A stretch of DNA of 64,000 nt from Marsupella aquatica (taxonomy: Eukaryota; Plantae; Marchantiophyta). Under the pieces are notes generated by a model, which had not been told where the DNA came from, searched no databases, and saw only the letters and a program-made list of their open reading frames with translations. Below, in pieces: positions 1,471 through 29,323 of the stretch. Each line of letters starts with the position of its first letter. The first letter of the stretch is position 1. The stretch covers positions 7,635,278 through 7,699,277 of the forward strand of contig OZ316896.1 of NCBI GenBank assembly GCA_973895155.1, given 5' to 3'. The translations under genes and the position numbers were made by a program.

Positions 1471-1614
1471 AAGATATAGTTCGGGCATTGTCGTGATTTT
1501 CTCTTAAGTTATAAAAACATTGTTTGTTTTAATATGTTATAGATTATATAAGTAGTTTAGTAGTTAGATTATTAAATTTAGACTTTATTAACTTCTTTAG
1601 CTATATTAACGGAC

Positions 1615-1875
1615 TACAGTAGTTTCACCAATACATATGAGTAGTTCTACCAACGCACAATAGTTCTGCCAACGCACAGTAGGTCCACTAACGCATACTA
1701 GTTCCACCAACGCATACTAGTTCCACCAACGCATAGTAGTTCCACCAACGCATAGTAGGACCACCAAAGCACAGTAGTTCCACCAACGCATAGTAGGTCC
1801 ACCAATGCACAGTAGTTCCACCAACGCATGGTAGTTCCACCTACTAAAAGTAGTTTCACCAACTATGAACAGTAC
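1615..1875. repeat. Minisatellite, ~19-21 bp unit TAGTTCCACCAACGCA(T/C)AG
   Basis: About a dozen head-to-tail degenerate copies with no unique spacers. Confidence 0.9.
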
Positions 1876-2720
1876 TAGCACACTCTTAGGTATTTGATGC
1901 TTGCCACTTGGCCTTCATCCAAGTGCTTGGGCTTGATCCATGCCCTCTTGGTGTGCACTATAAATAATTAAAGTGGTGAGGGGCACTCTCCCCTCATTTC
2001 GCAGTGTTTATCATTCAAGATTGTGAAGCTTTTTGCGCCTTAACATAGTAGTGGGGCATCCTTTGGCCTGGATAGCAAAGAAATAGGAGAGTCATCATGA
2101 ATCTAGGAGAGAGAGTTATCCCTGATCTTCCCCTTCGTAATCCGTTTTTAATTAGAGTCCATCTTTTAGACAAACGATCCATGAGGCAACACTTAACCTA
2201 TTATTTTGGAACTCAGTTTGCAACTGTTGTTATGGCTTTAAATGAGCCAATAGTATACCCAGTAGTGTCGTACCGAGAAGAGTGAGAGTGCATTATCTTT
2301 GTCCTTTATTGAAGTCATGGATCTAAATAGGAGTCCAGATGATATTCCTGTTTCATTTTCTCTTGAAGATATTAGGATCATATGTTGTAAGAAAACTAAT
2401 TTTTGTGATGTGTTGGTCCGCAAGTATGGTGAAGTAGGGTTTAACAGTATTTTAGTTTCACTTGAACCTTTCTTAATACCCACTACCCTTGTTACTAGAA
2501 TTATCATTTTGGTTTTAGTGTAGAACTTATGGGCATGCAAAGTTAACTTTATAAGAGCCAACATGCTCTTACCAAAAAACACGGTCACCCGGACAGCGTT
2601 TTGCGAGAGACATTTTTTGCGGACCTCTTCTTTCGGACCCACGACCGTTTGCGAACCTTTTGCAGACAATTTTTGCGTTCTTTCAATGGGAAAGTTGATC
2701 TTGATTGGGCTCTATTCAAC

Positions 2721-3133
2721 ATGGAGAGAAACGGTGAGCTCATGGATTGGGAGGCAACGTTCCTCCGTTCTTGTGTGCGTCCGGAAGAGAGCCATTTCAA
2801 TTCTTTTGAGTCACGGATGGAGACTGAAGAGACTGAAACCTCTACTTTCCAGAACCGTCACGCTCTACCATATGATGAGGCTATTAGTCCTAGAGAAAAG
2901 AACATCTTGTGGATCGTCAATTCTCCTTTGCTCCCATTCGCAAGCAGGTTCTCGTCTCATCAGGCTGTTTCTGTTGATGATGTACTGCCAATCAATAGGA
3001 GAGTTCAAGAAATGTTTGGGCGAGTTGCCAATCAATAGGAGAGTTCAAGAAATGTGGACAGTAATATTCCCAATGAAGGTTTTACAAGGGCAGTGCGTTG
3101 GGGTCCTTCTGAGAGATACATTTGATTGCGTGG
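2721..3133 (+). pseudogene. Disrupted copy of the small MULE cargo ORF (homologue of 12998..13459)
   Basis: MERNGELMDWEA... matches 12998..13459. It has a ~30 bp internal duplication at 2986-3056 and is truncated by the insertion at 3134. Confidence 0.7.
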
Positions 3134-6100
3134 TGTGATGCCTAGCCAGGAATCACTAGCCCAGTATAAATGGTAAAAATCAGGAGTGTACCCTGGAAAC
3201 ACATTAGTATAGTAACAAAAAACAAGAAAAATATAAACAATTGAGGGTAACTATGCAACCCGAGCCGAGGCCGGAAGTAAGGACATCGGGGGAGGGAACA
3301 CGATTAAGGTTAGGGCGCGCTAAGTACCGGCGGCTATGGGTAACTAACGGGCAGGAAGACCAGGCAGGAGGGGGGTAAGGATCGATCGCAAGGAATGGTG
3401 GCTCATTTGCAAGCACGAACTAAGCAGACGACTACGTGAAGCCAACTACTGTCAGCTACTTAGGCAAGCACTTGGGGCGGGAGCAAATACCGACTATCAA
3501 TTCAAAGAAGGGAATGAGCAACGTCAATCAAGCTGCTCATTTTTGGGGATGCTTGTTAGAACGGGCAACTGAGTACATTGGGACCTACGAGGACAAAGAA
3601 TCGGAAAAAGCCACTCGAGAAGGGCAAGAGCTCGCTCGATTGTGGGAGCTGCAGAAGTCTACCTTCTTAGGAGGAGAACTCATCATGGCTGAATTCCTGT
3701 GGACACCTACTGGCGACAAACTCGACGACCTTCTATTTTGTGAGAACATAATAGTCGACATTCGGGAAGCCATCAACCGCTTCAACAACACACACTGGGA
3801 GTTGAAGGGTAGCACGGAGGGGTGGACGAAGGCAACCGTCCTTGGAGAAACATCCACGGCAGCAGCTATGAAGAGGAAAGGGAACGCCAGCAAAGAGACC
3901 ACCCCTACAAAGAGAACGAGGTCGGCGGCACCCAGGAAGCCAGGGAAGCAGGAGGCAAGGAGAAGCCGAAGAAGAGGAGGTCAACCCATCAATGTTGTTC
4001 CAACAAGGGCTGACATCTGGAAAGGCTAGGAGGTGACCCTCCCCGAGGGAGTGCAATTACACTTTGCACAAGAAGAGGATGCATGCTTTACGGCTATGCA
4101 GACTCGGAAGTACCACGGCTTCATGGCCGGATCCGGCTTGGAAGCCTTCGTGAAATTACCATGGCTGAAGCCGGAGGTGACGGATTCAGACTTATTAGAA
4201 TTTGTGGGATCTTGGGAGCCCGAGACCAATTCCACAAGGGTGTATGGGAAGGAATTCTATCTCACTCCCTGGGTGATTGCCGAAGTGTTTGGCTTGCCAA
4301 TGGGCAATAAGACCAAAGTAGATACCCGGAAGACCTTGCCAAACAAGGAATTCTGGTCGTTTCCAGGGCCATCAACAAAGAATGGCTTCTTCCGAAACAC
4401 CTGCACCAACCCGCACATCGGAGAAATGATTGATTTCTTGCAGGTAACCATGCACTGCAACTTGCCAAGGGCAGAGATTGGCAAGGCACAGGTCTACCTG
4501 GCGGAGAGGCCAGACCCAAGCCGGGACTACAACGGGTACCTCCTCACCCAACTAAAGAAGATCTTGAAGGAGGAACAGTAGGCGATCGGCATGGGAAGCA
4601 TGTCTTGGCTTGGCTATCACATGCCACTGTTGTGCCGATATGCCCGAAGTAAGATCTTTGCCCTGGTACTTCCACTGCAAGCAAGGGTACCAGAGGAGGT
4701 TCCACAACAGAGGCCGGCAACAGAGAAACCAAACCAGCCCGACAGTCCTACAATCAAGCAAGTGTTTAGGCCGAGGACGGAAGACTTGCCGATGCAACAA
4801 CCAGGCATGCAGAATCTGCTGAAATTGCTGGAGAAGGAAAAGAGAACGGCAATGGCAATGGCACAAGTATAAGACACTCCTTCAAAGGTTAGCCTAAGCC
4901 AACTCATGAAGGAAAACCCCTTTATTGGAGCCAAGGAAAGAAGGAGGCCGAAACACAAGCCGGGGGTTTGAATGTATGTAGGAGCCTCGAGTCCAGAAGC
5001 CGAGGGAAGGCAGCCTAAGGCTCTTGTTCACGGGAAACAGAGGGAGAAGACAGCCTGGAAGCCAAAGGAGGAACTAGGACCTGTGAGCTATGATCGGCAG
5101 GAAGCCGTGTTCACAACAAGACCAGGAGAGCAACGAGGGGAGTTGTTAGTCCAAGTTGGGGAGGAGGTGGTAGAGGACTACGGCAATGATGACTCTGGCT
5201 ACGGGTCGGACCATCATGTCCTAGGAATAAGGACCTGTGGCTACTTCATCCCCACGCTTTCAAGAGTAGTTTGAGTGGACCCCACCCAGCAGAGCAGCCC
5301 CGAGTCTCCCCCACCAGATGTCGCTCCCCCAAGCTTTGACAAAATAAAGCAGGCGGCACAGGAATTTCAAGAGCAACTCAAGGAGGAAGAGAAGGCAGCC
5401 CTAGCTAGGGAGAAAGATTTACTAGGAGGAGAATGGCCAGAGGACATCAGGCGGCTTGCAGAAAAACAAAGCAGCCCTCCAGCCACGATAGAAGAAATCC
5501 GCAAGGCGGCTTGGGAACAAAGGCCACGGTGGTTGATGCCGATGACTTCTACTCACTCCACCTATGCTAAAGAAAGAGCCATGGAGTACAAAGAGATGTG
5601 TGGGGAACTTGCACTCAGCATCTTTGGGGAGGAGTTGGAGCAAGGACCCTTTTTCCAGAGGGAGATGTTGGAGAAACGCCGATTGGAAGAAGCGGTGGCT
5701 TTGGAGAGAAGAAAGAAGGACGAGGTTATCTGTCGGCTTAGGGCAAGGGAAGCCAAGGTGGAAGACCTGAAGGCGGAAAGGAAAGCCCAAGATGAGCTGC
5801 GGATTAAGCGGCATGAGCTAAACATCATGCAGGGGCAATTGGATACCGCTCAGTCTGATAATCAGATTATCAAGGATAAACTGACTCGAATCCAGGGGAG
5901 TTGGCCAATGCGGTCAAGGAGAGGGAGAAGGGGAAGCGGGAGCTAAGGGATGCAGAGGAGGCCCACATAGCAGCCAACAATCGGGCCATGGCGGAAACCC
6001 AAAGAAGGGAGAGGGCATTGAAGGGGGAGCTCGAGGATATCCGTGGAGTCCTTGAGCAAAAGGAGGCCAAGTTAGGGAAATCCTATCAAGGGATTATTGT

Positions 6101-11666: not shown

Positions 11667-12339
11667 TGTGATGCCTAGCCAGGAATCATTAGGCCAGTTT
11701 AAATAAAAAATCAGGAGTATACCTTAGGAAACACCTTAGTATAGTAACAAAGATAGGGAAATATAAACAATTAAGGATGACTATGGAACCCGAGCCGAAG
11801 TAAGGACGCCAGGGAAACATGATTAGGGTTAGGGCGCGCTAAGTACCGGCGGCTACCAACGGGAAGGAAGACCAGCCAAGGGGGGGTAAGGACCGAGCGC
11901 AAGGACTGGTGGCTCATTTGCAAACACAACCCAAGCGAACGACTACGAGAGGCCAATTGCTGTCCGCTGCTCAGGCAAGCACTCGGGGTGGAAGCAGATA
12001 CCAACTCATTACGGCTGAATTCTTGTGGACGCCTACTGCCAACAAACTCGACGATCTTCTATTTTGTGAGAACAAGATAGTTGGCATCCGGGAGGCCATC
12101 AACCGCTGCAACAACATACACTGGGAGTTGAAGGGTAGCACAGAGGGGTGGACGAAGGCAACCATGCTAGGAGAAACATCCACGGCAGCCGCTATGAAGA
12201 GGAAAGGGAACAACAACAAAGAAGCCACCCCTGCCAAAGAACGAGGTCAGCGACACCCAGGAAACCAGTAGAGCAGGGAAGTAGGAGGCAGACGGAAGCC
12301 GAAGAGGAGGAGGTCGACCCTGTCAATGCCATTCCAACG
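11667..12339 (+). mobile_element. Second, truncated copy of the LTR-like unit starting at 3134
   Basis: TGTGATGCCTAGCCAGGAATCA start. ORF 11909..12271 matches 3436..4029 with an internal deletion, and homology stops at ~12339. Confidence 0.8.
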
Positions 12340-12997
12340 GGGAATTTACAAACGACAGCAAACAGATAACAATAATAGCAAACAGTTACTGTTATCAGCT
12401 AGAAGAAACTGTTACCAATGAACAGTGTTTTGGGTAGCAATGAACAGTGATCATGAAAAAAGTGGACGAAAGATGCGTTTCAAACTACTAGTATAGAAAT
12501 CAATACGATCAAATTCGCGTGAAAGGAAATTGGACTAGACGGAATCATGTAATTTACAACAAATAAAACCGTCTCACAATTGAGATAAACAAAATCCGAG
12601 ACCAATATATGTCAAAATGCTCAGGGAAAAAATAAAATTGCCATATATAATCGCAAAGTACATAACGCGTTCGGCGCAGGTCCAAAAAACGCACATATAA
12701 GTTCAAACCTGCATGCCTAGAAATCTGATATACAGAAGCCACGGTCGCCCCCGGCTGAGGATTTCCAGTAAAACAAAAGCAGTGTTGGGCGCTAGCCAAC
12801 AACTTCAGGAAAAACTATGGAATTCTTGAAGACAACATCCGGGAAAAACCCTAACAACTAAGCCGAGGACGACTCCATCCTGAAACATCGAAAGAGCTTA
12901 AGCAGCGCTCGGCGCTAGCTTAAAGTGATCACCAAACTAAACAATGCGATGCCGTTCTTCGTGAAAAACCGGAGGAACAAGCAATAAGTGATTGCAT

Positions 12998-13459
12998 CTA
13001 GCTTTCAGAGTTGCAATCATCCTCCACTCCTGCCGCTTCTCTCCTTCGATTTTTCTTGAATCCAAGACCACGCAATCGAATGTATCTCTCAGAAGGACCC
13101 CGACGCACTGCCCTCGTATAACCTTCATTGGGAATGTTACTGTCCTTAAAGTCAACTTGCCCAAACATTTCTTGAACTCTCCTATCGATTGGCAATCCAC
13201 CATCAACAGGAACAGCCTGATGAGACGAGAACCTGCTTGCGAATGGGAGCGGAGGAGAATCGACGATCCACGGGATGTTTTTTTCTCCAGGACTAATAGC
13301 CTCATCATACGGTAGAGCGTGACGGTTCCGGAAAGTTGAGGTTTCACTATCCTCAGTCTCCATCCGTGACTCAAAAGAACTGAAATGGCTCTCTTTCGGA
13401 TGCACACGAGAAAGGAGGAACGCTGCCTCCCAATCCATGAGCTCACCGTTTCTCTCCAT
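12998..13459 (-). CDS. Small MULE cargo protein of unknown function (153 aa)
   Basis: Open ATG-started frame, conserved in copy A (2721-3133). Confidence 0.45.
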   Translation of the reverse strand: MERNGELMDWEAAFLLSRVHPKESHFSSFESRMETEDSETSTFRNRHALPYDEAISPGEKNIPWIVDSPPLPFASRFSSHQAVPVDGGLPIDRRVQEMFGQVDFKDSNIPNEGYTRAVRRGPSERYIRLRGLGFKKNRRREAAGVEDDCNSES

Positions 13460-13559
13460 GTTTAATAAATCCGATCAAGTGGAAACTTCCCCTCCGAAAA
13501 AATGTGAAAACTTCCCGCAAAAGGCCCTCAAAGGTCCGAAAATGCTCGTGGGTCAGAAA

Positions 13560-13830
13560 GATCTCGTCCGGGAGGAAAGTCTCCCACGAAATACCCGAAA
13601 TGTATCTCCCAAAAAGGGGCCGCAAACGGGCGTCGGTCCCAAAATAGTCGCCTGTCCAAAAACTTGTCGTCCGCGACAAGTGTCGTCCTTGAAAACTGTT
13701 GTCAAAAAGAGATCCTAAAATATCGTCCGAGAGAGATGCCGTCAACAAGAGATCCTAAAATGTCGTGCGAAAAAGCTGTCAACAAGAGATCCGAATGTCA
13801 TCCAAGAGATCCGAAAATGTCATCCGAATA
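13560..13830. repeat. Subterminal tandem repeats (GTCAACAAGAGATCC units)
   Basis: Reverse complement of the array at 1190-1470. Confidence 0.75.
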
Positions 13831-14158
13831 TAGCCGATGTGGGTTTCTTTGGAAAACTAACGGACCTAAATGAAATGGCCGTTGGTATCCAAAACGTATA
13901 TTATACTCTGTATTGACTACTATTTGTCTCATTCTGATGACCGTTGGTAGGACACGACAAAGACCAAACGACCGTGTTACACAAATAAGAGCTAGAAATA
14001 TTCACTTTATGAATCACCATTTGGCGAGCACCTGGCGCTTGTAAAAACACAAGGAATCAGACATTAATTGATTAGGACTCAATGAGAGGATTTTAATACA
14101 AGTTGGTACTAGCGCCAGGCACTGGTAAAAAATTTCTCCATAAATTCCTCAATACGTG

Positions 14159-17100
14159 TCACAATTCTGCAGATTCTGATTCGGAACCAGAATCTGAACT
14201 CTCGGATTTGTCCGTGGACACAGCCTCATCATCTACGTACTGGCTGCGGGAGAAGTCATCAACATAAGGATGTTTAATGAACTTCCTGTCAACACCCCTT
14301 CGTAACCGAAGACCTTTGTTTTCCCAGAAAAGCGTCCTTGTACTCTCGGCTTTCCTTGCGGCTTTCTCTGCATAGGAGGGGAGAACAAAAGGTTTTTCTG
14401 GTGTTTCTATGTTGTGTCTAGCAACCCTCCTTCGCAGTTTGAAACGTCTCCTCGCATTCCACTCTGACCTGATCAAACAAAATCCAGCAAGTTAGGTGCC
14501 TTTCTCCAAAACAACACAGAAATGTTATAAATTGACGGGAATGGAGAAAGAAGCTTACGAGTTTATGAACATTACTCGGAAGAGTCATCACTATCGGTTT
14601 CATCTGGAGATCCACGAGGTTCTTCCTTTTCCTCCTCCGAGTCCCCTGTACCTTGTTCCTCTCCACCTCCACCTTCACTGGACTCATCATCAGAATCAAA
14701 ATTGCGTACCGACCGAAGCTTATCCCGCTTCTTTCTGTCGGCAATAGGAACATGTGGAGGCAAAACCGCAATCTCTTTGGGAGACAACAAATCCATGAAA
14801 ACCTTTGAAGTGGTTTCAATAAATTCTTTTTCTATGTTCTATCCCGAGCACAAACCTCCCGGAGAAGACTCCAGCAACGAAGGAGCTTCCAGCCCCAGCG
14901 GTCCAATCCATAAAAATATCATGAGGTCGGGTGACAAGCTCAATGACAGATTGCATAAACCCAAGAGATAGGCGAGCATTTCCAGAAAATTCCATTTGCG
15001 GGAATGGATCGGATTTGAGAGAAGGGAGTCCGATCAAATTGGTGACCGAGGGGTCCTCACTGATGGAGAGTGGACGGAATTTAGGGTCTTTGGGAATTTT
15101 GCATTTCCCATTAATTCGACCAAATATGTCTAGCCTGAGGGTAAACATCTGCAGAAAGCAATCCCAAGTGTCAGTTGGCAACTCCAGGTTAAACGAGTTA
15201 TATTTCAAAATGCGACATAGTTAAGAGTACATAATTACCTGACGGTCTGTCTTTGCTGCGTACATCAGGATAGACATTACAACATTATGCGTGCATATGC
15301 ACTGAAATTTTCTCGATTCCTGACAGGCAGCAATGACTTGAGACATGGGATCATACTCCCCATTGTGTAGAATTGCAAGGAATCCATCATCTGATAGAAA
15401 TGGATCCATGGACTTGAAAAAAGATCTAGCCATGGAGTGATCTGAAGTGTTCCATTTAGGAACCTTCTTATCTATGATCGTTGGTTTGAACCCGGTCGGT
15501 AGGTAAATGAAACCCACATCCACTCCAAACGATCTTTCTTTTCCTCCCCGCACAACACCCTTCTCTTTATATCCCGACTTAACGAGATCCTTCCCCCACT
15601 TCTCCACATTACTAACCCATTCAGGTTTTTCCCCCTTGTTGAAAGTCCAGTCAAAAAATTCGGATATGCTTGTCTCAACCATGGCATGACGAGACACTCT
15701 AGTTTTGAAGTTTCCAACTTCACGTTGGACACCAGATGCTGCAACTCTCCCTTGAAGAAGGTCCACCTTCGATAGCTCTCTTTTGTTTCTTCCTGGTACT
15801 TGTGGCGTCGACCGGAACTATTACCTTCCCCTTGTCGATAGGAGTAATGGGGTCCGATCGAGCTCCGGTGTTTGCCTCAGAAACTTCAGGTGTAGCATCC
15901 ACTTTAGTATCTCCTGTTCCCGCTGTATTAGACTTCCTCCCTCCTAAATTACCAATAGGTCCTAGTTAGAACAAGTAAATCCTGAGTATTCAAACAAGCT
16001 AGCGCCAGGCGCTAGCCAAATGAAAATCACTTAGGTTTCAACAAAAGGCCTAAGAATCTAGAAAGAAATTTGAATTCGCATGACATTTCTAGCCAGCGCC
16101 AGGCGCTGGCCAAACCACGGAACATTATACTCACTTTTCCTCCCAGATTTTGTTGACTCGCTTGGTGCTGCTAACTCCGCTTTTGCTTTCGCTCGAGGTT
16201 TTCGACTTCGGTCCACATGAACAATAGTCGTTTCACAGATACTTTGCAAGTCTGTGGCAGACTTGTCTACATCGTCTATTAGGCCCTGCTTCATGTCAGA
16301 CACAATTTTTGCTGGTATGTGGGACTTTGAAAGCTTATGGAATGCATCTTTCTCCCTTTGATCAAAAGGAGAATCCCATCTATCTGTATCTAGATACCAG
16401 GGGCAATGAGTTCTCTCCCATTCTGTCATAGGTCTCGGAGGAAATATGCCCTCCGCTTGGTACATGGAGTACAAATCAGCTATGGCGTCATCCTCACTTA
16501 TTCTAATCCACTTCATGAAAGCTGCAGGATATGCCCAGAAGTAATCAGGTTTGGTTACCTCCATGTGCATGTAGAACCTGTAAAGATACCTTTTAGCCCG
16601 CTTCTGGTTTTTCTGGGTGTAGTCTTCTTTGTCTGGATACTTTGAAGGCCACATAGTGTGAAAGAACTTACTCTTCACAGAATCACCATATCTCTTGAAT
16701 TCATTTGTAACAAACTGAACGAGATCATCAAACGAACCACAATTCCACTCTTCTAATCTAGTCGCGGGCATCGTCTGCTCTACTTCACGCAGACATGAAT
16801 GTAACATGCCGACAGCAATTCCCTCTACACTATTCCAAGTGATCCAAGTATGACACCATTGTTTGACTGGGTCGTCGTTAACACTTGTTGGGTGGAAAAA
16901 CTGTCTCCGTAGCTCAGGATTGCAATGTGCCACAAGTAGGGTGCTTTGCAACTTTGGGTCTAGGGCAGAAACAGCAGTGAACAATCGGGCGCGGTCCATT
17001 GTACATACGACGGCGTTTGGCTTCTTCTCTCTCTTGTTTCTCTCTGTGACAGCATACATTTCTGCACATGTACTAAGAAAATCTTCAAATTCAGGACTTA

Positions 17101-18342
17101 ACAAGGGCATAATTTTTGAGGACTTCACTGCCCAGTCTTTGGTTGCATCCTTCATCATGGCTGCATGGCATTTGGAAATCTCGTCCACCGACCAGGGACT
17201 CCCTTGAGCCTTGGCTGCCTCCATGTCAAGCTTGAATTGGTGAGAATAGGACTTTATCTTATTCTCACATAGAATGTAAACAAGAGCTTCCTGTGGCATC
17301 TTCTTCGTATACCATGACCCCTTCCGAGTCTTTAGCCGAATGCTCTCAAACTTCTTGAAATTAGCCGGGTCAATCAGTTTACTGTAATACTCAAGGTCAT
17401 GCGCCAGAATTCGTTTGATTCTATCTGCATCGAGAATCCATGATGGCTCAACAACGGCTTGGCCAAGCCTACACGAAGAGATGCAGCGAGTTAGACTCGA
17501 AGTACAATTTATGTATAACCAGCGCCGAGCACTCTTAAATAGAACACTCGCAAGATTCAAAGAAGGTACCAGAAAAAAATGAGAACTTACTGATTCACTG
17601 TGTGCATAGCTGCCTCGATTTCAATAAGAGATCCCTTGTCTCCCTTAAATATTGTGCAGAGCACTCGAGGATGGTATTTTGGATTGTCAGGGTTCTCCTC
17701 TGTAACAAGCGTCCATGAGTACAGCCTGTGATTTCCATCGAAGACAGAGAACATCTTATCCTTCAACATGAGAAAATCTGGATCGGCCTCGCATTCAGCC
17801 TCAAACTTCTCGTTCTCCAATTGCCAAATTGGATCCCATGACTCACGAATTTCCTGGGTATAGGTCAGAACAATTCCATTCTCATCCGTTGGCTGGACAT
17901 AGAAACGCATTCCTATGGATGAATTGTAACCCATACTGCGAAACGAGTCTTTCAGCTTCTCGATGGAAGAGCTATCTTTCTGCAAAGTATGAACCACCTC
18001 CATGTGAACCAATCGGCATAGAGGGATTCGAGGCGGCTCCTTGTTGAATCCACGAGAATCCTTTCCAAAACACATGACATGTTTTGAGATGAGATCAGTC
18101 TCCGCGAGTGCGCAGTCTGAAACATCTTGGATCGCAATCGTGTCGAGGTTCTCCATCTTTCTACGCAGAGATTTAGGAACCAAAATAGAGCTAACAGAAG
18201 TAGGAGGCAGCAACTTTGTGGAACGAGTTACACGACGTGTATAAACTGAACCAGTAAACGAAGACTACGAGGATTCAGAATAAGCTCGCTCTTGGTCAGG
18301 AACAGAACTATACGCTCTGGATGAAGAGGGGAATACCTCCAT
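14159..18342 (-). pseudogene. ParB/Srx-like domain plus beta-class N4/N6 DNA methyltransferase-like fusion gene (~1200 aa, 5 exons; one early stop and two frameshifts)
   Basis: Exon 1 (18342-17591) has IEKLKDSFRSMGY...FSVFDGNHRLYSW (ParB/Srx signature). In-frame GT-AG introns lie at 17590-17469, 16134-15962, 15238-15149 and ~14576-14471. Exon 3 has VDVGFIYLPTGF (motif IV position, degenerate) and FLSDDGFLAI (motif VI-like). Exon 4 has RPHDIFMDWTAGAGSSFVAGVFSGRFVLGIE (motif I/II). Confidence 0.75.
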
Positions 18343-18614
18343 CGTCTTCCTTCCAGAAGCGTACGAACTATCATACAATGAAATTATGGAACTCTAATCA
18401 AATCTCAACGTGTAATATATTCTAGAAGGAGGGTCGAGTTCAGCGGAACTCTTCGATTAAAGCGAGAAGCTCGTAAGTTTGGCAGATTTGAATGTATGTA
18501 TGTGGAGAACTTAATTAGCTAAATCAAGCGGTAGAAGAAGCATAACACACACGGAACTCACAAGTTACCGTTAAATGTTACCGTTATGACCATTTCCTCC
18601 CTCAATCGGAATAC

Positions 18615-19037
18615 TAGCGCCGGGCGCTATTATAAACAACTTCCCGTGAAGTAGATAATTGGGATGATTGTCATGGCAGCGCCCGGCGCTAGTAAAAACA
18701 ACAGCTATACAATAGGTCTGAAATGGTGTCTAGAATACATAAATTTCGCCGGGTGGGAATACAAAAAACCCATATTTGAAGAAATGTCTATTGTTTTAAT
18801 GGTTTTTGGAGAAAATTGCTTGCATCCCATACTAGCGCCCGACGCTAGTGATAACGAGTATTTTTCATCCATAGTTTTAAAAGAATTCACATTTTCATTC
18901 ATCATTTAAATCCAATTATTTCATAGTATTGATGGATATCTAGAGGGTTTTTCGTATACTAGCGCCAGGCGCTAGTATGGAATATCGAGATTTGGGGTAT
19001 ATTGTGTTTGAGATATTTTAGTTAGGGCCAGGCGCTA
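18615..19037. promoter_or_regulatory. Cluster of five TAGCGCCNGGCGCTA palindromes in the divergent promoter region between the ParB-MTase gene and the transposase fragment
   Basis: Copies at 18615, 18677, 18833, 18960 and 19023. 18956-18978 extends to a 23-bp palindrome. Function is inferred only. Confidence 0.65.
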
Positions 19038-19314
19038 CTCAAAATGTTCCAACTATACAATATCTTAGAGTCTGTTAAAGATTTTTGTGGTGTCTTTTTT
19101 GGCATTATTTATGCGTCTGACATCCGGACTTATCGGGGAAAAACGACAAAATTCATTTATGGCACCAACGGATCCTATGTCGACTTTGTTTTATGTCTTC
19201 TACAAACGGATATGTTCACGTGAAGTTCCCATGTTCGACTGATATAAGCTCCATATTACCATAGACTTTTCTTCCTCGAAACATTACAGCCCTCGTTATT
19301 TGTTTTTGATTGCA

Positions 19315-19910
19315 ATGTCTCGGTCCATCGTTCTATCCCGATTCGGGACTGGGGATATTGTGACCATCCCCGTCCCTGTGGAAGACACGTACAAGCAGGT
19401 CCGGGAGAGATACCTTTGCGGGAGATTTGATTTGAAGATGAATGATATTGAGGCCATTCTTCGAGAGCTCAAAACCAGTGATGACATCGAAGATGCAGCA
19501 ACATTCAATGTGGATGATGGTGAATGGTTTTGGCATCTATACGCGGGGATTTCGTACTCACTTCGAGTAAGACACCATGAAGGACCGTCCACTGTCCCCC
19601 AAGTTCCATTTGATGTTGTCGAGATTTCTTCTAGTGAAGATGGGGATCACACTCCAAGTCCTACGTTGAAAATGGAAGTCCCGCAATGTGCTGTCGTTAA
19701 AGGTGAGACTCTAGGAAGCTCCAACCAGTTGGAGGTCGTGTATCGGCAAAGTGCGATGGATACATTACTCAAATCCACTGGTCATAGTGAGTTATCGAGG
19801 TTCATATCAGCAGGTGATTTCAGACATGAGCAGGTCTCCTGTCTGCCAACTAAGTATAATGGGAACGTCGTGTTTGAATTGCCACCCATTGACAAGATGC
19901 TCTCTAAAGG
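19315..19910 (+). pseudogene. 5' fragment of a second (paralogous) MULE transposase
   Basis: VYRQSAMDTLLKSTGHSELSRFI...SCLPTKYNGNVVFELPP matches VYRQSAMDTILKSKGHSELSHFI...SSLPMTYNGNVVFELPP in 24404..25270. Homology ends at ~19910. Confidence 0.8.
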
Positions 19911-20615
19911 CTCTAGGCTTAGGGACAATCTATTCCTGAATAGGCTTAAAACGATTTCTCTCCTCTCCAAATCTATGTCCTCTCCTGTGAAATCAAAAGG
20001 AAGGTCCAAACTACGGTAGTTCGCAAACTTCATAACGAACACACCACAATTATAGTAATCAGTTTGTCTTGGGATGTCCTTGGGACTATGTTTTGGCCAT
20101 AGAGTAGCTAAGACTTGCTTGTGACTTCTGCTTTGAATTTCATCCTTGACATATCTGGCTAAGTTTTCAAGAACCTCTGGCCTATTGTTATGCAGAGAAT
20201 TGAGATATTCTAAATACTTGTGTTCCATGTCAATCACAACTAACGCCCAATGATCGCCACCTTCGTGAATGGGGATGAATATTCGATGACAATCAATTAA
20301 GAAATATTTCAGTCGTGAAGTCCAAGCCTCCATGGATCGGTAAGAGTAGCCATTCGACGTCAATGCAGTATAGAACCAAGTGTCAAACACATGGCACTTC
20401 AGAAGCTCCCTGTCGGAATGTTCATTCCTCTCCACTATGAGACTTAAGTAGGCATTTAGAATATCGGAACTTATCCAATTTCTAGGACTCAGGCACCTCA
20501 TTTGTCCACGAGTTATTAGGCACCCATTAGTCCTGGCTAGAACCGCATCCTGATCCAACAGATCATTGAGGCAATTGTCAATCCTCGTTTTGTTTCCGGA
20601 GATGGGAGAGGACAT
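19782..20615 (-). pseudogene. Ulp1/SENP-type SUMO protease (peptidase C48) domain; C-terminus reads through into the antisense of the transposase fragment
   Basis: WISSDILNAYL, FDTWFYTAL, IFIPIHEGGDHWALVVID, PRQTDYYNCGVFV. The expected YLDSL reads YLNSL, so the catalytic Asp appears changed to Asn. Frameshifted upstream sequence lies in 20537..21489. Confidence 0.9.
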
Positions 20616-21664
20616 TTGTTTATGTTTAGAACTTTATGACTTGAGACAAGAGAGAGGAAATTGGCACCTGCCTCATTGGTTGCCTCCACACGATCGACTC
20701 GCCTCTCTGACACCTCAGGAAGATTCGCTGTGAGAGAAAATGAGTTATCATTCTCTCCTGTTACTTCAGTGCTACGAGAGTCAACATTGTCATTGCATTG
20801 AAATTCAATCAGAGTGTGATATTTTTCCACAATCCCAACCTCCTCCACAACAATCTCTTTTAAGGGTCCACAATCCACCACCCCCTTCTCGACATCCTCG
20901 AGTGTAGTTTTTGCCTCACAATCATCAAAAACTGGGCCACTTCGAAGAACTAAAGCATCAACCAGAAGAGATTGCTCAACACCTCTGTTGCACTCTAACC
21001 CTGGAGGGTCAAACAAATTTTGAGGATCTACACGATACGTGTGTAGGGAGACATCATCCACAACATCTTCCAGAGTTTCGTTGAACGCAATCAACCCCTG
21101 CCTGCCTGTAAGTTTTCAGAATTATCTGCCAAACCATAACCTCCTTCAGCCATTAGAAGAGGAAATCCTTCGCGACTTGCAATTGGAACGACTGATGGAC
21201 CAATTCTCATCTCCCCAATGGAACTTAGAAACTTTTCCTCCGCTTCCACCCCGGTGTAATGTAAAACTGTACCGGCAATCTGATAATGCTGGCCCTCTTT
21301 TGCTCCACTAGCATTGGAGTTTTGAGTCAAACTCCCTTCAAGGCCAGGAGGTTTCCACAATGATTTGGCAAACTGTGCAACTGGAACTAACAATTTAAGA
21401 TTCTTTGCATAAGCCGTGAGGTCAGAGACATCCTCACGGTCAGAGCAGAATGAAAAACACTCACGCTCAAGCATCAATGCATTCTTCAATACCTGCCCTC
21501 CTGTGAAAAAATCCAGGACAATTTCCTCCGCAATACAGTGATTTCTGCACGAGACGCGTGTAGAGGGTGACAGACGGGGTATTTGATTTCAAGGATTGAC
21601 TTGACTTCAAATGGTCTTTGGTCAAGACTATTCCAATGACTAACCATCCAGATTCGATATTTTT

Positions 21665-22723
21665 ATGTTTGTAGAGTTTGTTCCCAAACTCCACTCAGAG
21701 ATCAAGCGAAAGCTCTTGATTTTTGACCTTAATAAGGTTTGTTTTGATTCCGTAAAGAGTAAAAGCTCCGGACCATTTCGGAGACTCACATCTGTGAGGG
21801 GCGTTCACTGGGGAAGACAGGGCGGGAACACATTTATGTATGTGGAGCGTCCAGGACTTCACGAATTTTTACAAGTGATTTTCAGGTATTACGATGTCGC
21901 GATTTGGACTTGTGCGGGAAGGCCGAGAACAAATGAAATGATGGATCTTGTTTTCAACGATGCTGAACAAAAGCAGTTCAAGTTTGTATTCACCCAAGAA
22001 GAAACGTTTGACACTGGCTTTTTGAGGTCAGATATTACGGATGGGAAGGCAAACATACTTCTCAAGGAAATCCAAACTGTTTGGGATCGTTTTGGCAATA
22101 GATATGGTCCGACAAATACTGTTCTCATTGATGACTCTCCTCTGAAGTGTTTCGCGAATCCAAATGTTAACTCATTGTTTCCAGTTCCATTTGTTCACAA
22201 CATGGGAGGCGACACTTTTATGATGGAGATATTGCTTCCACTTCTTCAAAGAATGCACAATGCTTTTGATGTAAGACACTTTCTGAATGTTAACTACCCA
22301 AAATGGTCCGCCTACAATAAGGGTGAAGCCCAAAGGAGGCATTGTGATATCTTTGCAGGACTCACTCAAGCCTGGGGGCACCGTGTTGCTGGCATCATCA
22401 ATAATTTCACTGTCCTTGACCACTCGGCAGACGAGATTTCCTGGGAAGTGAAGCATACCGTGCAAAGTTTGCCACCGGTGCAGGATATGAGTGACCGTGA
22501 CATCAATTCAATTGCTAAAGGTCTACTTGGAGATGGTTATTCCGGCCCATATTTGCAAAATAAGCGGCAATTTGTTTGGGAAGTCCTAAAAACTAGGGAC
22601 CTTACTTCTAAGTTTAGAAACTTGTATCCTAAAGACGCTTGCAACCGAGATAGAAAGTTTGATAAGTCAAGAAAAGTAGACTTACTTGCTCAAATATGTT
22701 TTGTAGCAACACACATTCAATGA
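21665..22723 (+). CDS. FCP1/NIF-family HAD phosphatase domain protein (352 aa, intronless)
   Basis: KLLIFDLNKV (motif I variant), YVERPGLHEFL, YDVAIWTCA, LLKEI, NTVLIDDSPLK. Confidence 0.85.
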   Translation: MFVEFVPKLHSEIKRKLLIFDLNKVCFDSVKSKSSGPFRRLTSVRGVHWGRQGGNTFMYVERPGLHEFLQVIFRYYDVAIWTCAGRPRTNEMMDLVFNDAEQKQFKFVFTQEETFDTGFLRSDITDGKANILLKEIQTVWDRFGNRYGPTNTVLIDDSPLKCFANPNVNSLFPVPFVHNMGGDTFMMEILLPLLQRMHNAFDVRHFLNVNYPKWSAYNKGEAQRRHCDIFAGLTQAWGHRVAGIINNFTVLDHSADEISWEVKHTVQSLPPVQDMSDRDINSIAKGLLGDGYSGPYLQNKRQFVWEVLKTRDLTSKFRNLYPKDACNRDRKFDKSRKVDLLAQICFVATHIQ

Positions 22724-23149
22724 TCGTTATTTAAAAATTTGGAGACTTGTAATATTGAGGGGAGGCCTATTACAAGTAAACAATTGTTATGGACTTCTGT
22801 ATGGTTCCCGTTAGTGGGTGACAATGAAAATGTGACATTACTCATGTGACTATTCTCCACCAAATTCGTACGCCAAAAATGTATTTTACATGGATTTGGA
22901 ATTTTCAACTGGTGTTTAGGAAACTTGAAAGAGTGTTCTAGAAATTCCAATTCCAAGTTTTGGAAACTTCATTTAAGGTTGTTGGATAATGTATTTATTT
23001 AATTTGGAAATTTTACCAAGCCACTTTAGAAAAAAGAATTTCCAGAATTAGTGAAATCACTGATATTTTTAAAAAACTGAGGAGTAACCTCCAGCTAGAT
23101 TCCGAGACTACCATGCTGGCAAAAGATTGACTACCATTACTACCATTAT

Positions 23150-23704
23150 TGCAACAACTGGTCGTGGCTGTCAACAATGGACTCCACCAAATGGAGTTGG
23201 CCATCTACTTAGGACTACTTTGTTCTCCAGGATCAGATGATCGATGCGTAGCCAGGGTAAGTTAATCTTCCCACCAGCTTGGCTTGTACGCGTCCGAATC
23301 GTCGTTGGAATCACTAGAGAACCAACGCTCCAGCGAAACCCACCCCAACTACAAGAGGAGTCGTCGTTGGACCCCGAGTCGTTGTGGGTCCCTGCGTTGT
23401 TGTCTGTATCCTCGCCTTCACTAGAAGAACTTGTGCCATGCCCAGGTGGCTGGTGCAAAGAAGAGAACTCCGCCTTTGACACCCAAGATTTCTGCACGGA
23501 GGGTTGAACTTATGCCTTAGCCAGAGGAGCACCATCTGGTGCGGATACAGTTACCCAAGTCTTCACGATCACTTTCCCCTTTGCTGAGATTGGGACGGTC
23601 GAATGAGCTAGAGGCTTCGGGAGAGACTTCTCCAGAGCACCCTCTCCATCGTTGTCGCTTTGAAATGTAACCTTCACCTTCCCCTTCGCTCGTGGTGGAG
23701 CCAT
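23150..23704 (-). pseudogene. Probable first exon of a cargo gene (possibly the Ulp1 gene), with in-frame stops
   Basis: MAPPRAKGK... (23510..23704) continues past a stop into 23171..23497. It is divergent from the transposase. Confidence 0.45.
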
Positions 23705-24041
23705 GGAAACTTAAACAAACAACTCTGCAAGATCAAGACTGAACGAAAGTTTCTCGAATGAAATTGAACGCAGGAGCGCAAAAAAGTTTATGAGAACAAA
23801 GAACTCCAAATGATGAGAGGCAGACTCGCCGGCCAGGTTTTGGGGACAAAGGTGAGAACGTTTGGACCCCGGATGGACATCTCAGATGTAAGGGTTTCCA
23901 ATCGTGCAATAGATGACCGAGATGCGTCGGTAGATTTTTGAGATCTCTCGATTGTGAAAACTTTAATGCACATGTGCGTATTTGGACCGCGTCATGGATT
24001 TCCTGTCTGTTGTTAGAGTTATAACGTACGAGCTTTGATGA

Positions 24042-24169
24042 TAGCACCGAGCGCTATTATTACTATCGGAGTTTTCCCTCCCTCCTCGCCATGCGGTATT
24101 GTCTTTGGTCCAGAGTCATTCTTCCATTGTGAAGTTGTTTTTCGTTCACAAAAGTAGCGCCCGGCGCTA
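24042..24169. promoter_or_regulatory. Two TAGCGCCNGGCGCTA palindromes upstream of the transposase
   Basis: TAGCACCGAGCGCTA at 24042 and perfect TAGCGCCCGGCGCTA at 24155. Confidence 0.6.
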
Positions 24170-26481
24170 TTAAACCAATCAGTTGGTTCAATATAGCCGT
24201 TGAATAACAACAAAAATCAATTGATTTACATCGTCCAAACGCTTAATGTATCTTTGTTTATCATTATTCAACGTTTGTTTATACTGTCGTTACTAACCTC
24301 GTACATCAAACAAGCCTTAAACCGATTGGCAAAGTGAGACAACAATTATTCTTTTCAGCTGAAATGGGACGATCGATCATAGTTAGACACAAGGACACGC
24401 AGGATGTCATCACAGTTATCGTATCCCCTGAATCTCAGTCAAGGAGAGTTTTGGATGAATACTTGGGTAAGATTTGATGTTTCAAAAGAGTGTATTCTCT
24501 CGGTGTCCCTCCTCCCTAAGGATTCAAAGGAAAATACCATCTTCTACAATGTCGTTGATGGGCTCAGGTTTTGGACGATGTATCCGGATAAAGTATATGA
24601 GGTCTTTGTTTTGGAAGATTCTGTAGTATCGGAAGATCTATGTCCTGTTCTCGGTGGTGTTGATGTTGTCAATCTCTCTGACACTTTGGAAGATGAGGGG
24701 AAAAATTCTCCCCTTTCCTTTCATGTCCCAAAAAGGATCCCAGTGGATCCCTTGGTTGTGAAGATGGAGGTTCGAGATGTTCCAATTGTATATCGGCAAA
24801 GTGCAATGGATACTATCCTAAAATCAAAGGGGCATAGCGAGTTATCTCATTTCATTAGGGAGAAGGATTTCACGCATCAAATAGTTTCCAGCCTCCCGAT
24901 GACATACAATGGGAATGTTGTGTTTGAGTTGCCTCCAGTCAATTGCGTGAATTCAAAAGGGGAACGACTGAAGGACATGGACCGCGGGAAGGATTGCTAT
25001 TACTGGACGCGCATCGTCAAAACATCTTTGAATGTTTTACCGAAGAAGATGTGTGGGATTTTGGTAAGGTGCAGTGTACCGGTTCTCTTGAATGTCGGAA
25101 TAATTCCTGCCAATTCTGGAGAGACAAAAAGACTAGGAACAACCAAGTCTGGGCAAGATCACCAAAACTCTCAGGAACCTTTTGAGTTGGAGAACTCATC
25201 CCGCAAGGTGGTATTGTCTGTCACCACTGCTCTGAACCTCCAATGTGTACGAGATCGTGTCCGGCCATGATGTTCTATATGTATCCTTCGGCCAAAGTGG
25301 ATTCAACACATTTGGCGTATATGTCCCAGCTGGCTGTGCACATGGGATTTCACAATCATCCCAATCGTCGGGTGTTGGTCGAGAGAGGTTGAAAAGGTTG
25401 CTAAGACTCACCTCGCAAAGGAGTTCCATGCTAATCCACGAGCTACGCCCGCTAGGATAAAAAATATGGCTACAGACACTCTCACCAATGCCCTCTGTGA
25501 GGAATCCGTGGAGGAAATGTCATCGGAAGAGGAGAAGGAGACATGGGAGTCCCTCATGGTTGTTGCTACACCACAAAAGTTTGCTTCTGTTCTGTGAAGT
25601 GTGAGGCAAGACCAGAACGGTAAAGGTGAGCTTGAATATTTGGTGTGGATGCAAAAGTGTGTGAGACTTCCCTTTCTTCATAGGTATTTGCTTCCAGGCC
25701 AAGGATGTCGAGACGAAAGTGCTCACATTTTCAAGATGACTGTGAAAGGCGAAGGATCTGGGATTGACCTGCTCTGGAAATGCAGCCTAGTGGTTCATTA
25801 GAGGGGTCATGGGTGAGTTTTGACGTCATGCATAGAATTACATCACACTGACTAACTTTTAGTGTTCATGTATATGATCATCACTATCGGGCACTTTGTA
25901 CAATTTTCACTTGTGAGTTAAAGGCTGAAGACACCAAGTCCTTAGAGAGAGCGTGGCGATTGATGATAGAAGTTGCGAGTGAAAATGGCCTAGAGAACAT
26001 TCAAATTTGAGGATTCATGGCGGACAATGCCCAGGCTGGTTGGAATGCGGTGCAAAATGTTTTCTTCAATGGGGTACCTGATCCTGACCGAGAGCGATCA
26101 GATGCGTTTCATTTTTATCAGTCATTTCGTCGGCATTCACGCAAAGGTGTTCCAGAAGGAAATCTCAAAGAACACAAGAAGATGTGGGATGGTCTTCGTA
26201 ACGCAAAAACATTTTTGGACGCATATTGTATGTCAAGAGAGATCAACAATTGGTGGCGAGCTGGAAATTGCCATCAGGGGAAGCTTCGAATGTTGCAAGG
26301 ATGGCTCTCATGGTGGGTCGTCCGTTGGAGACAGTGGGGAAACTTCATAAGACTGGTAAGTCTTTTCTTATATTCACGATAGTCCGTTACCAATGTTTTG
26401 TAATAGCGCCCGACGCTAATATGGAAAATGAGTACTCGGAGTCCAATGCCTTGTTACAGTATAGTAGCGGCCAAGTGCTAG

Positions 26482-26955
<474 letters not shown>

Positions 26956-27038
26956 AAGTTAATAGCGAATGAAAAATAAGTGAAAAAGATATTATATTTT
27001 TAATATCTTTCTTACTTGAAGATGTACTTTCAATAAAA

Positions 27039-27124
27039 GGAAAGAGAGGGATTCGAACCCTTGATATTTTTAAAACTATATCGGTTTTCAAGACCGACGC
27101 CATGAACCACTCGGCCATCTTTCC
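27039..27124 (-). tRNA. trnS-UGA: Plastid-derived tRNA-Ser(UGA), probably a non-functional NUPT copy
   Basis: Reverse complement GGAAAGATGGCCGAGTGGTT...GTCTTGAAAACCG...GGGTTCGAATCCCTCTCTTTCC. Long variable arm, and the canonical position between psbC and psbZ. Confidence 0.9.
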
Positions 27125-27250
27125 AAAAGAAATGAGAACAAATTTAAGTTATTAAGTTCATCAAGATGTTATTCCATAATATGAACTTTTATATATATTA
27201 TTATTATCGTAAATATTAATTACTATAATAAAACTTGGAGAATTACAAGT

Positions 27251-27325
27251 ATGACTATAGCTTTCTAGTTGGTTGTATTTGCATTAATTGCTATTTCTTT
27301 CCTATTAGTTATTGGTGTACCCGTT
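27251..27325 (+). pseudogene. psbZ: psbZ 5' fragment with premature stop
   Basis: MTIAF*LVVFALIAISFLLVIGVPV; codon 6 reads TAG where Gln is expected. Confidence 0.9.
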
Positions 27326-29323
27326 ACTGTAGTTGCTAAATATATTTATTTGTTTCCGATGACAGAGCAAGAGTGTTGAGGAGGCAGGTATGATTCCGAA
27401 TTGTACTGGTTTGAAATCGGTCCATGCAAGCATGAAGGCGTGGCCAATGAAGAAGCGGGTTGGCCTCATGGAGGGATGCAAAACTGACCAAAACCGAGCC
27501 GTATGTCAGATCGCAGCTTATACTGCATACGGTCAAGGATTACATCAGGGAACTGGACCCACTATCTTTGAGTTGGCTTTCAGATCTGCGGACATGACAG
27601 GGTCTCCACGTCTATTTGAAGAAGCGACTAATCTCCTTCTTTCCAACGCAGCTGAATTTGATTTGGAAAGAACTGTTCCGTTGAATGGAGACGTCATCAC
27701 TCGATCGGTGAAACGAAAAGGTAATGCAAGTGGGAATGTCTCGGCACAAGACTCTCACAGGCATGATACTATCCTTGTGACTTCACCAAATACAAGGGGT
27801 TTGAAGAGGAGAAACCTCCATTCCATAGACTTTGAGAAGATGTCTTCCACACCTTCTGTTGGTGGAAGTAGTGTCGTTAATTTGTCTCAAACTGAGAGTG
27901 AAGATTCTGAGGAAGTCGTCATCCTTGAGACACCCTCACGTTGAACGACAAGATCTTCTGTTCCTCCCGTCAGACATGAAGCTGGGGCCGCGCCTGAGGA
28001 ATCTCTTCTCCCGATGGAAATTGACATAGCTCCAGGTCTCTGGCAGCTCCGACAAACTGCAAAACGTGGTGTTGGTCTAGCTTGTAATGGGACCCTCGGT
28101 TGGAGAGGAAGCCGCGATGAATGTCACAATCGAGTAAAGAAGGTTGGGTTTCCAAATCCATAAGGAGTTGTCGCAACATCTGTAAGAGGATGTAGACTTT
28201 TTAGAGGAGAACCTCATCCGGACCAGATATGGTTTTTCCCAAACAACAAATGTCACAAAAATCGGCCAAGAAGAGGTGTTTCAAACATTCCCAATATACC
28301 ACCCGTTCTTCCCATTGTGAGAGGGACCAATCTCCAGGAGGGCGAGATCCAATTCTTGAGAGAACAAGGTCTAATTGGTACAAGAGAGGTAAGGGAATGT
28401 CAGGAGCCATCCCCGTCTGAGTTGCGCATCGATGTGAATTTGTTCCAAGAGAGGATCAATTTAGCGGACCCAGCTTTTAGATGTGGCTCCAGGAATGGAA
28501 GAAAGTGCTTGCAGGGAGTGAATCTAACTCAAACACATTACAACAAGATCGAAGCATCCGAAACAGAAGTAATGAGACTCGTATGCGAGAGAGATGTCAC
28601 AAGTGGGAATGCGTGGGGGAAGCAGTATTGTATCAGAACACATGAACATGAGAGGACTATTGCCTCTTATTGGGTGCAGATTTGTTGTTTCCCTTGCTGT
28701 TCATGTGAGGATTTCTATCGGAGGCACATTTATAGGAAACCTTACATGCCTTGCAAACATCTACATTGGGTATTCAGGACTGTGTTGAAGTTAAGTCTTC
28801 ACGATTCGACACTATCTAGTCAACCAGTTCTGACATTGGGCGAAGTCCGTTACCTACTTGATCGACAAAATGGAACGGACATGTAGTCAATTTGGTGTCG
28901 TTCAACAACTTTAAGTGGCATTTGTCTTTTCTAACGGGCAAAAGATGTACCCGTTTCTTATCCAAAAATATGTGTTGTCTGTTGCTAGCGCCTGGCACTA
29001 GCCAAAATTTGCAACAGATAGCAAATATATTGACAGTTAAATAAAGCGCGTCTTCTTATAATGACCTCTATATTGCCCGTTATTTATCATTGAATGGTGG
29101 GCCCCATTATGTTAGCATTTCAGAGAGCGCTTATATGGTTGTTGTTTTTTAAAATGGAGCCCTTTTTGTCAACTTTGAATAACCTATAAAACTCATACAA
29201 GTAAATAGTTTCTCGTATGAGTAAACAGATTTTCTGCTATGAGTAATTGAATTACTCGTATGAGTAAATTTTTGCTCGTAACAGCAAATCTATTTACTAT
29301 TTGCTGTCACGGTGGTTATACCC

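Follow-up and report, generated by a model that had tools for sequence, protein, structure and literature searches.

What does a DNA transposon gain from a gene that joins a ParB-like domain to a DNA methyltransferase domain? This question is raised by a stretch of 64,000 nucleotides (hereafter the window) from the liverwort Marsupella aquatica (contig OZ316896.1, positions 7,635,278 to 7,699,277 of the forward strand), in which such a gene lies on the minus strand at 14159-18342, inside a repeated element of 17 kb. By analogy with known systems, we put the probability at about 0.5 that the predicted product, of about 1230 amino acids (aa), is a putative self-binding, VANC-like accessory factor of its own element, composed of a ParB-like domain and a pseudo-methyltransferase. 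An earlier annotation of this locus (the original prediction) had presented it as novel. The pairing of the two domains is not, since the architecture is already in print for algae, where available text describes it as an accessory protein of Ectocarpus (PMC12477816) and as separate red-algal genes (10.1101/2025.02.11.637652). The parts that deserve attention are a family-wide loss of the catalytic motif and, new relative to the original prediction, a 13-bp palindrome, AGCGCCnGGCGCT, dispersed over the element.

Three-frame translation of the minus strand bears out the predicted gene structure. Five exons are joined by four GT-AG introns of 122, 173, 90 and 107 nt, all in compatible phase, and sum to 1231 codons when two indels known from other copies are allowed for. 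The motifs quoted in the original prediction are present, with DGNHR in exon 1, VDVGFIYLPTGF and FLSDDGFLAI in exon 3 and DIFMDWTAGAGSS...GRFVLGIE in exon 4, and the central region that had been put at about 450 aa is the 445-aa exon 2. The gene also lies, as proposed, within a transposon. In the following lines, SAM denotes S-adenosylmethionine and Srx sulfiredoxin.

12339-29323: whole repeated element, with ends GGG...CCC
18342-17591, minus strand: exon 1, a low-complexity N-terminus and then the ParB/Srx-fold domain with DGNHR
17468-16135, minus strand: exon 2, central region, fold not recognised, with a basic stretch at its end
15961-15239, minus strand: exon 3, a basic/low-complexity linker and then the catalytic half of a beta-class amino-methyltransferase, with a degenerate motif IV and motif VI
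15148-14576, minus strand: exon 4, the SAM-binding half (motifs X, I and II) and then an acidic tract
14468-14159, minus strand: exon 5, C-terminal tail, basic, then acidic, then stop; open in both window copies
15149-15238, minus strand: intron 3, precisely missing from a group of related copies
1-3134, plus strand, in opposite orientation: partial second element copy that includes the last part of exon 4, the whole of exon 5 and a palindrome at 972; 91.6% identical over 1393 nt and 82.8% over 517 nt

The exon boundaries are supported by homologues, which number eight for exon 1, one for exon 2 and 75 for the exon 3-4 region. At intron 1, the donor position lies no more than one residue from the end of six of the eight exon-1 homologues; two extend about 25 residues further. 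The metagenome contig L003 carries relatives of exons 1 and 2 in the same order, about 110 nt apart, and the start of exon 2 matches it directly behind the ParB exon (E 1e-17). Over its full length exon 2 is 46% identical to the database protein P0001, whose end coincides with its own. Searches of Pfam, PHROG, NCBIfam and Atlas gave no informative match for exon 2, and the Atlas scores were low. Exons 3 and 4 are covered together by eight database proteins. Moreover, contigs from three of four sequencing runs contain a form that lacks intron 3 (joint 15150>15243 in X1, X2 and X3; absent from X5), in which length and flanks fit an exact removal of 90 nt and two bases differ from the window copy. 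Because the contigs cover introns and spacers, we take the runs to be DNA and this form to be an intron-less group of copies. If the copies are indeed DNA, the loss of intron 3 would suggest that a spliced mRNA of this gene was once reverse-transcribed.

On sequence grounds we consider it highly probable that exons 1-5 are spliced into one predicted ParB-methyltransferase fusion protein. Exons 1-2 (ParB) and 3-5 (methyltransferase) might instead be two neighbouring genes, in the manner of the red-algal PAG3 and PAG2, or passengers with no function in the element. Such a division would suit the observations that no protein in the searched databases covers both domains, that the Calypogeia models P0003 and P0017 begin in the linker right before the methyltransferase, and that red-algal elements are described as carrying the domains in separate genes (10.1101/2025.02.11.637652). 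We nevertheless regard it as very unlikely: exon 2 contains no stop ahead of its donor, the 173-nt gap behind it has GT-AG borders that agree in phase, and P0001 stops at the corresponding point. In addition, the Calypogeia model P0014 joins an exon-2-like stretch to the methyltransferase (22% over 69 aa, pairwise E 2e-4), both domains are also described as fused in the Ectocarpus protein, which is of comparable length (1104 aa; PMC12477816), and conservation down to about 30% identity speaks against a neutral passenger. A search by word index for longer methyltransferase relatives found none.

The window copy of the gene is broken, as the original prediction had recognised in calling it a pseudogene. 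Exon 1 contains a premature TAG at 18267-18265, with its second in-frame ATG at 18156, and the frame changes near 15743 in exon 3 and at 14827-14830 in exon 4. Both frameshift places show indel differences in contigs of related copies, and P0077, a relative with 76% identity, is open across the region of the exon-1 stop. A comparison of the two window copies gave 16 synonymous and 30 non-synonymous changes, a ratio of about 0.55 that is uninformative because both copies are dead.

The ParB/Srx fold anticipated for exon 1 is confirmed at the level of structural modelling. An AlphaFold model from 13 sequences reached a mean predicted local distance difference test (pLDDT) value of 82.7. Its best Foldseek rows against the PDB were ParB, KorB, sulfiredoxin, Noc and SbnI (top match 6sdk, probability 0.99, E 0.049), and nearly all top rows are ParB/Srx members. 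All six VIA rows at Z>=5 are likewise ParB/Srx-fold proteins, with 79-99 residues aligned; among them we take Atu1540 to be a member of this fold. The matches are given below with their root-mean-square deviations (rmsd).

SerK: Z 6.2, rmsd 4.3, 99 residues aligned
KorB: Z 6.1, rmsd 3.0, 94 residues aligned
Srx: Z 6.0, rmsd 3.7, 89 residues aligned
PadC, SbnI and Atu1540: Z 5.9, 5.1 and 5.0

In a viral structure library, the named top rows were mainly ParB-like. DGNH is invariant in the 12 covering rows and the next Arg is found in 11 of them, corresponding to the GxxR nucleotide-binding motif of Box II. An Arg upstream of DGNH, presumably in the Box I region to judge by its position, is kept in 10/11 rows and is His in the window copy. 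The structural scores are modest singly, but fold, motif and Atlas features agree.

Several other leads concerned this domain. The sequence profile of exon 1 gave a weak DUF1015 match for one of nine members and weak DGQHR-domain matches elsewhere. Atlas pointed to DUF3723 clusters (0.95; 31% of members carry the family), a lead that was not confirmed, and DUF3723 is not called ParB-like in the available part of the Starship paper. We found no viral contig relatives of exon 1. Canonical ParB proteins have a helix-turn-helix and a dimerisation domain, work with a ParA partner and clamp onto parS in a CTP-dependent way; family scans recognised neither ParA nor a helix-turn-helix in exon 2 or the rest of the element. 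L004 contains at 434-1039 a distant member of the exon-1 ParB family, 33% identical and with the same intron position, which hints at a wider bryophyte range.

The methyltransferase half was examined through the read-through of exons 3-4, which has 75 relatives among 1.84 billion proteins searched; the species-named proteins among the 25 looked up are five Calypogeia fissa models and one Riccia sorocarpa protein. A family profile had beta-class methyltransferases as its best five matches in the PDB (DpnA, E 5.8e-6; CcrM, 0.0018), and against eight phage methyltransferases it aligned over 189 columns with a probability of 96.9 and E 1.7e-10, the D-P-P-Y of the phage enzymes standing opposite (F/Y/A)-L-P-(T/N). 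The catalytic motifs lie N-terminal to the SAM-binding motifs, as in beta-class amino-methyltransferases. The window protein itself falls under the Pfam PF01555 cut-off (13 vs 26.7 bits), which one of 18 scanned homologues passes. Taken together, these matches support the beta-class amino-methyltransferase (PF01555-type) ancestry and motif order put forward in the original prediction.

Its suggestion of a direct horizontal acquisition by the liverwort lineage is not established, because we found no close prokaryotic relative or donor; P0054, the Riccia protein, gave weak generic methylase matches against phages and plasmids, with E>=7e-3 among the matches listed. The only match in a prokaryote genome, L005, was rejected as the opposite strand of a membrane-protein gene, and matches to TRAPP, RING and Atu1531 were rejected as chance.

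We then asked whether the catalytic motif is intact anywhere in the family. Alignment A1 has 74 rows (P0043 and P0072, two of the 75 relatives, were left out), of which 34 end short of motif IV. Among the 40 covering rows, [DNS]PP is missing in 39 and an aromatic fourth residue in all 40; the window copy reads YLPT at about 15494-15505 in exon 3. The first position varies freely (A 12, Y 11, F 8, C 3 and S 3 of 40), and the following Leu-Pro pair is conserved (33/40 and 37/40). The SAM site is retained among proteins down to 24-35% identity, with the motif I Asp kept in 37/45 rows, its two Gly in 32/40 and 37/43, and the motif II Glu in 29/38.

The sole row with DPP is P0054 (Riccia sorocarpa, KAL3696265.1), which reads DPPT, with a fourth residue that is not aromatic. 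In a tree rooted on phage enzymes, P0054 is sister to all other rows with support 97/97; the phage outgroup is small and was picked with P0054 as query, and P0006 and P0032, two of the eight rows labelled xLPT, do not cover motif IV. Since motif IV is degenerate across the family with P0054 as sister, its loss is old and shared, not a decay of the window copy. P0054 aligns to almost the whole PF01555 model (E 3e-5) and is a candidate active relative, its motif distinct from the TSPPY reported for Marchantia MpDN4MT1 (10.1101/2021.02.12.428880).

The sequences thus make it very probable that the family is catalytically dead as a canonical amino-methyltransferase. This favours the fallback offered by the original prediction, a dead DNA binder, and leaves its leading proposal, a working DNA-modifying enzyme other than a 5-methylcytosine (5mC) methylase, unsupported. 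The methyltransferase could in principle be active with a non-canonical site, using its SAM pocket while a conserved Trp after motif IV and a His/Tyr after motif VI replace the lost residues, and could methylate RNA, protein or DNA, the last as N4-methylcytosine (4mC) or N6-methyladenine (6mA), with the palindrome's CCnGG core as one conceivable site. Conservation of the SAM site and of the Leu-Pro pair itself would be compatible with such activity, as would the sister P0054, which keeps DPP and likewise has no aromatic fourth residue, and the algal counterparts are described as predicted methylases (10.1101/2025.02.11.637652, PMC12477816). The free variation at the D/S/N position is, however, unlike that of an active-site residue, and in the bdelloid N4CMT a mutation of the same motif, SPPY to APPA, is reported to abolish activity (PMC8885841). 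We judge residual catalysis distinctly unlikely.

A candidate target for a protein that binds without modifying is the palindrome AGCGCCnGGCGCT. At <=1 mismatch it has 15 matches in the window against 0.01 expected, 14 of them in the element, one in the second copy and none in the remaining 43.9 kb. The sites in the element, which span 12904-28999, are as follows.

12904, 14027, 14111, 16001, 16095, 18616, 18678: palindrome sites, first part
18834, 18961, 19024, 24156, 26405, 26538, 28987: palindrome sites, continued

All 14 lie in non-coding DNA, either introns or spacers (P about 4e-8 with our own coding map). Nine are in or within about 700 nt of the ParB-methyltransferase gene, and the outermost 300 nt on either side of the element are free of sites. 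L001-L004, each only 1.2-1.8 kb long, did not yield the palindrome.

Several described systems offer the closest comparisons. One is the giant DNA transposon Sola1-1_Ec32 of Ectocarpus, whose 1104-aa accessory protein is described as having a ParB-like and an N4C/N6A methyltransferase domain, lying on the strand opposite the transposase, and being proposed to bind and modify its own element as a predicted writer; the authors regard such proteins as possibly forming a new class, with further reports from green and red algae (PMC12477816). Our gene shares with it the presence of both domains in one protein, a similar size, the opposite-strand arrangement and a large DNA transposon as carrier. 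By description only, it differs in that Sola1-1_Ec32 belongs to the Sola superfamily and a brown alga, whereas here we have a liverwort, a transposase resembling that of Mutator-like elements (MULEs), Ulp1 and NIF cargo and a lost motif IV. Red-algal Plavaka elements are reported to carry PAG2 (PF01555 with SET) and PAG3 (ParB with a 2-oxoglutarate (2OG) oxygenase), also found on Chondrus Mutator, Zisupton and Fanzor elements (10.1101/2025.02.11.637652). There too the same two prokaryote-type domains travel as cargo of DNA transposons of 17-19 kb, and inverted-repeat arrays are their proposed binding sites (10.1101/2025.02.11.637652). PAG2 and PAG3, however, are two genes, partnered with SET and 2OG and accompanied by tandem arrays, whereas we see one fused gene, detect no SET or 2OG and find single dispersed palindromes.

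Another is VANC, the anti-silencing proteins of the Arabidopsis VANDAL MULEs. VANC21 is reported to bind a motif within its own MULE, in introns and in intergenic and terminal non-coding DNA (PMC5735166), and the likeness lies in an accessory gene of a large MULE-type element with a short motif concentrated in non-coding DNA. The two proteins show no homology in any search, and the VANC motifs are described as non-palindromic 8-9-mers in tandem repeats with proven function (PMC5735166), whereas binding is only proposed here.

The methyltransferases themselves can be compared as well. Prokaryotic beta-class enzymes (DpnA, CcrM and MboIIA; PF01555) have the same motif order, IV...VI...X-I-II, and the same SAM-site residues, and ParB-N6N4-methyltransferase fusions, described as common in phages, have the same domain order (10.1101/2025.10.10.680097). 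Unlike these, the liverwort gene has lost the catalytic motif, has an insert of about 450 aa between the domains and contains four spliceosomal introns. Among eukaryotes, the beta-class amino-methyltransferase fold is shared with bdelloid N4CMT and with MpDN4MT1a/b, which also come from a liverwort (10.1101/2021.02.12.428880, PMC8885841). In the accounts available these are host genes with an intact SPPY and shown 4mC activity, and no ParB domain is mentioned. Inactive methyltransferases have been described in DIRS1 retrotransposons, and ParB-helix-turn-helix (HTH)-fused Dam-type methyltransferases in chlorophytes, according to the available part of Iyer et al. (PMC4738411). Our literature search, from which Repbase entries, subscription papers and the supplements of the algal papers were absent, found no ParB-methyltransferase gene described in transposons of bryophytes or other land plants.

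We therefore favour, at the probability given at the outset, an accessory factor that binds its own element. All five exons would be spliced into one protein, in which a motif IV without D/S/N and without the aromatic residue should, from enzyme chemistry, not allow exocyclic amino methylation, while the retained SAM pocket and DNA-facing scaffold would let the pseudo-methyltransferase act as a reader or shield. By analogy with ParB/parS, PAG3 and VANC, the protein, probably dimeric, would dock on the AGCGCCnGGCGCT copies of introns, spacers and subterminal DNA, and the nucleotide-binding ParB domain may gate its loading or spreading. Host 5mC silencing would then fail to close the promoters and ends of the element, which would stay available for transposition.

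A bolder version, which we think unlikely, would see a bacterial-style parS/ParB system in land-plant transposons. A nucleotide-gated clamp would load at AGCGCCnGGCGCT and spread a dead base-flipping methyltransferase along the 17-kb element, masking CG and CCnGG from host methylases; it would be convergent with VANC and descend from a once-active 4mC/6mA writer, with the DPP sister in Riccia.

Several points weigh against the accessory-factor proposal. On the protein side, no Foldseek match reaches E<=0.001 and the best Z is 6.2, profile searches with the exon 1 sequences recovered no ParB from PDB or Pfam, and family scans identified no HTH (as in ParB) or other DNA-binding domain in exon 2. 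The single-sequence model of the methyltransferase region has a pLDDT of 34, so that half has no structural confirmation. In the predicted transcript, the exon 2-3 joint (intron 2) is the weakest link, carried by the splice signals, the P0001 end point and one weak match to an automatic gene model, and a single protein running from ParB to the methyltransferase is absent from the searched databases. On the DNA side, nothing in our analysis ties the protein and the palindrome together, and six of seven mismatched sites show C>T or G>A decay, so the window copy was not protected. Nor does CpG content clearly set the element apart from its neighbours: the observed/expected (o/e) ratio is 0.56-0.81 in the element ORFs (open reading frames), 0.23-0.27 in two neighbouring elements and 0.43-0.77 in six other stretches. 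Finally, a transposase itself is reported to be able to bind and activate its own cognate copies (10.64898/2026.08.24.746577).

This last point, together with the CpG content, would also suit a real accessory factor of another kind. In that case AGCGCCnGGCGCT would represent transposase or host-factor sites, and the ParB-pseudomethylase would act as a scaffold when ends are synapsed, the element is excised or a target is chosen, and would have no part in anti-silencing. The palindrome indeed flanks the transposase gene and sits in its intron (24156, 26405, 26538 and 28987). Its clustering around the ParB-methyltransferase gene and its distance from the element ends argue the other way, as do the inverted repeats described as bound by ParB proteins, arrays of which adjoin red-algal ParB-like genes (10.1101/2025.02.11.637652). 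We consider such a scaffold rather unlikely, and the self-binding, anti-silencing factor remains our preferred reading.

The rest of the element was annotated in the same way.

24364-28886, plus strand: broken transposase-like gene, with a Cys/His-rich N-terminal part, a DDE-like core with DxxH, a long intron and a C-terminal CxC...CxH (SWIM-like) finger
19785-21588, minus strand: Ulp1/C48 protease gene of several exons (Pfam PF02902, E 7.5e-30, last ORF)
21644-22723, plus strand: NIF/HAD phosphatase-like gene (Pfam PF03031, E 1e-17; TIGR02245, E 1.3e-9)
12998-13459, minus strand: small ORF, present in the second copy too, with no family match in Pfam/NCBIfam scans

The original prediction assigned the element to the MULEs, a label that is plausible and that we slightly favour; it is not established, because the transposase-like gene has no MULE or SWIM match in Pfam, and none in NCBIfam or PDB, and no target-site duplication is present. 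MULE transposases are of the DDE type and often have a zinc finger; the D, D, DxxH and CxC...CxH motifs behind the MULE label were read by eye. Ulp1 is a cargo known from MULEs. Long terminal inverted repeats are expected of MULEs and are absent in non-TIR (terminal inverted repeat) MULEs; here the terminal inverted similarity is weak and imperfect over about 120 nt, and its alignment score is reached by 2/489 random pairs. Target-site duplications of Mutator/MULE elements are given as 8-11 bp (PMC6446971).

At the left end, contigs of a flanking gypsy-like element leave the window sequence at 12338/12339 in four of four runs; on the right, a contig of depth 13 that matches the flank exactly begins at 29294, and copia-like reverse transcriptase/RNase H sequence, identified by eye, follows 29323. 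Because the ends of the window copy have no target-site duplication and the flanks belong to different retroelements (gypsy-like left, copia-like right), this copy is probably recombinant or rearranged; with such flanks, at least one of the two original neighbouring sequences is no longer there. The mismatched flanks at 12339/29323 suggest recombination of two insertions, an adjacent deletion or an assembly join. Summed contig depth over the ParB-methyltransferase gene is 850-1300, against 13 for the right-flank contig in the same run; summed depth is no copy number, and it fits an element family numbering some tens of members. Over the Ulp1/NIF middle part the depth drops to about 170-300, as though many copies lacked this part or had diverged further in it.

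Some further details concern these genes. The Ulp1 domain (19785-20633, minus strand) has Asn at the catalytic Asp position in the window copy and Asp in contigs of other copies. The first motif of NIF/HAD phosphatases is usually DxD; that of the NIF/HAD-like gene is DLNK, possibly marking a second pseudo-enzyme of the element. At 19318-19940 (plus strand) lies a truncated duplicate of the transposase N-terminal part, with 70% DNA identity to 24788-24936, which runs into the end of the Ulp1 gene. The transposase intron holds a plastid DNA insert at 26603-27325, which we take to be the psbC 3' end and a tRNA-like stretch and which other copies lack (joint 26601>27324). The second copy contains a 1.2-kb expansion at 1387-2629 with a 19-bp tandem array (1602-1901) that is not in the main copy, and it ends near 3134 at sequence resembling a long terminal repeat. 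Elsewhere in the window, a 158-bp tandem repeat of about 3.7 copies occupies 33673-34264, and pieces of a transposase that we take to be CACTA/EnSpm-like lie at 59637-63650 (minus strand), with very low CpG (o/e 0.23).

For the biology of such elements, the comparison with algae is instructive. In the available text, no tested activity or binding site is reported for the algal ParB and methylase accessory genes (PMC12477816, 10.1101/2025.02.11.637652). Loss of the catalytic motif throughout the family suggests that what has been kept is binding rather than writing, and with the 13-bp palindrome in its non-coding DNA the element offers a concrete candidate target site. The ParB-methyltransferase family probably adds no new source of 4mC or 6mA in plants, and the window copy is dead. 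If the protein does bind AGCGCCnGGCGCT and lift silencing, it would represent a second, independent kind of transposon-encoded anti-silencing beside VANC, and a rare case of a eukaryote using a ParB-type switch on DNA.

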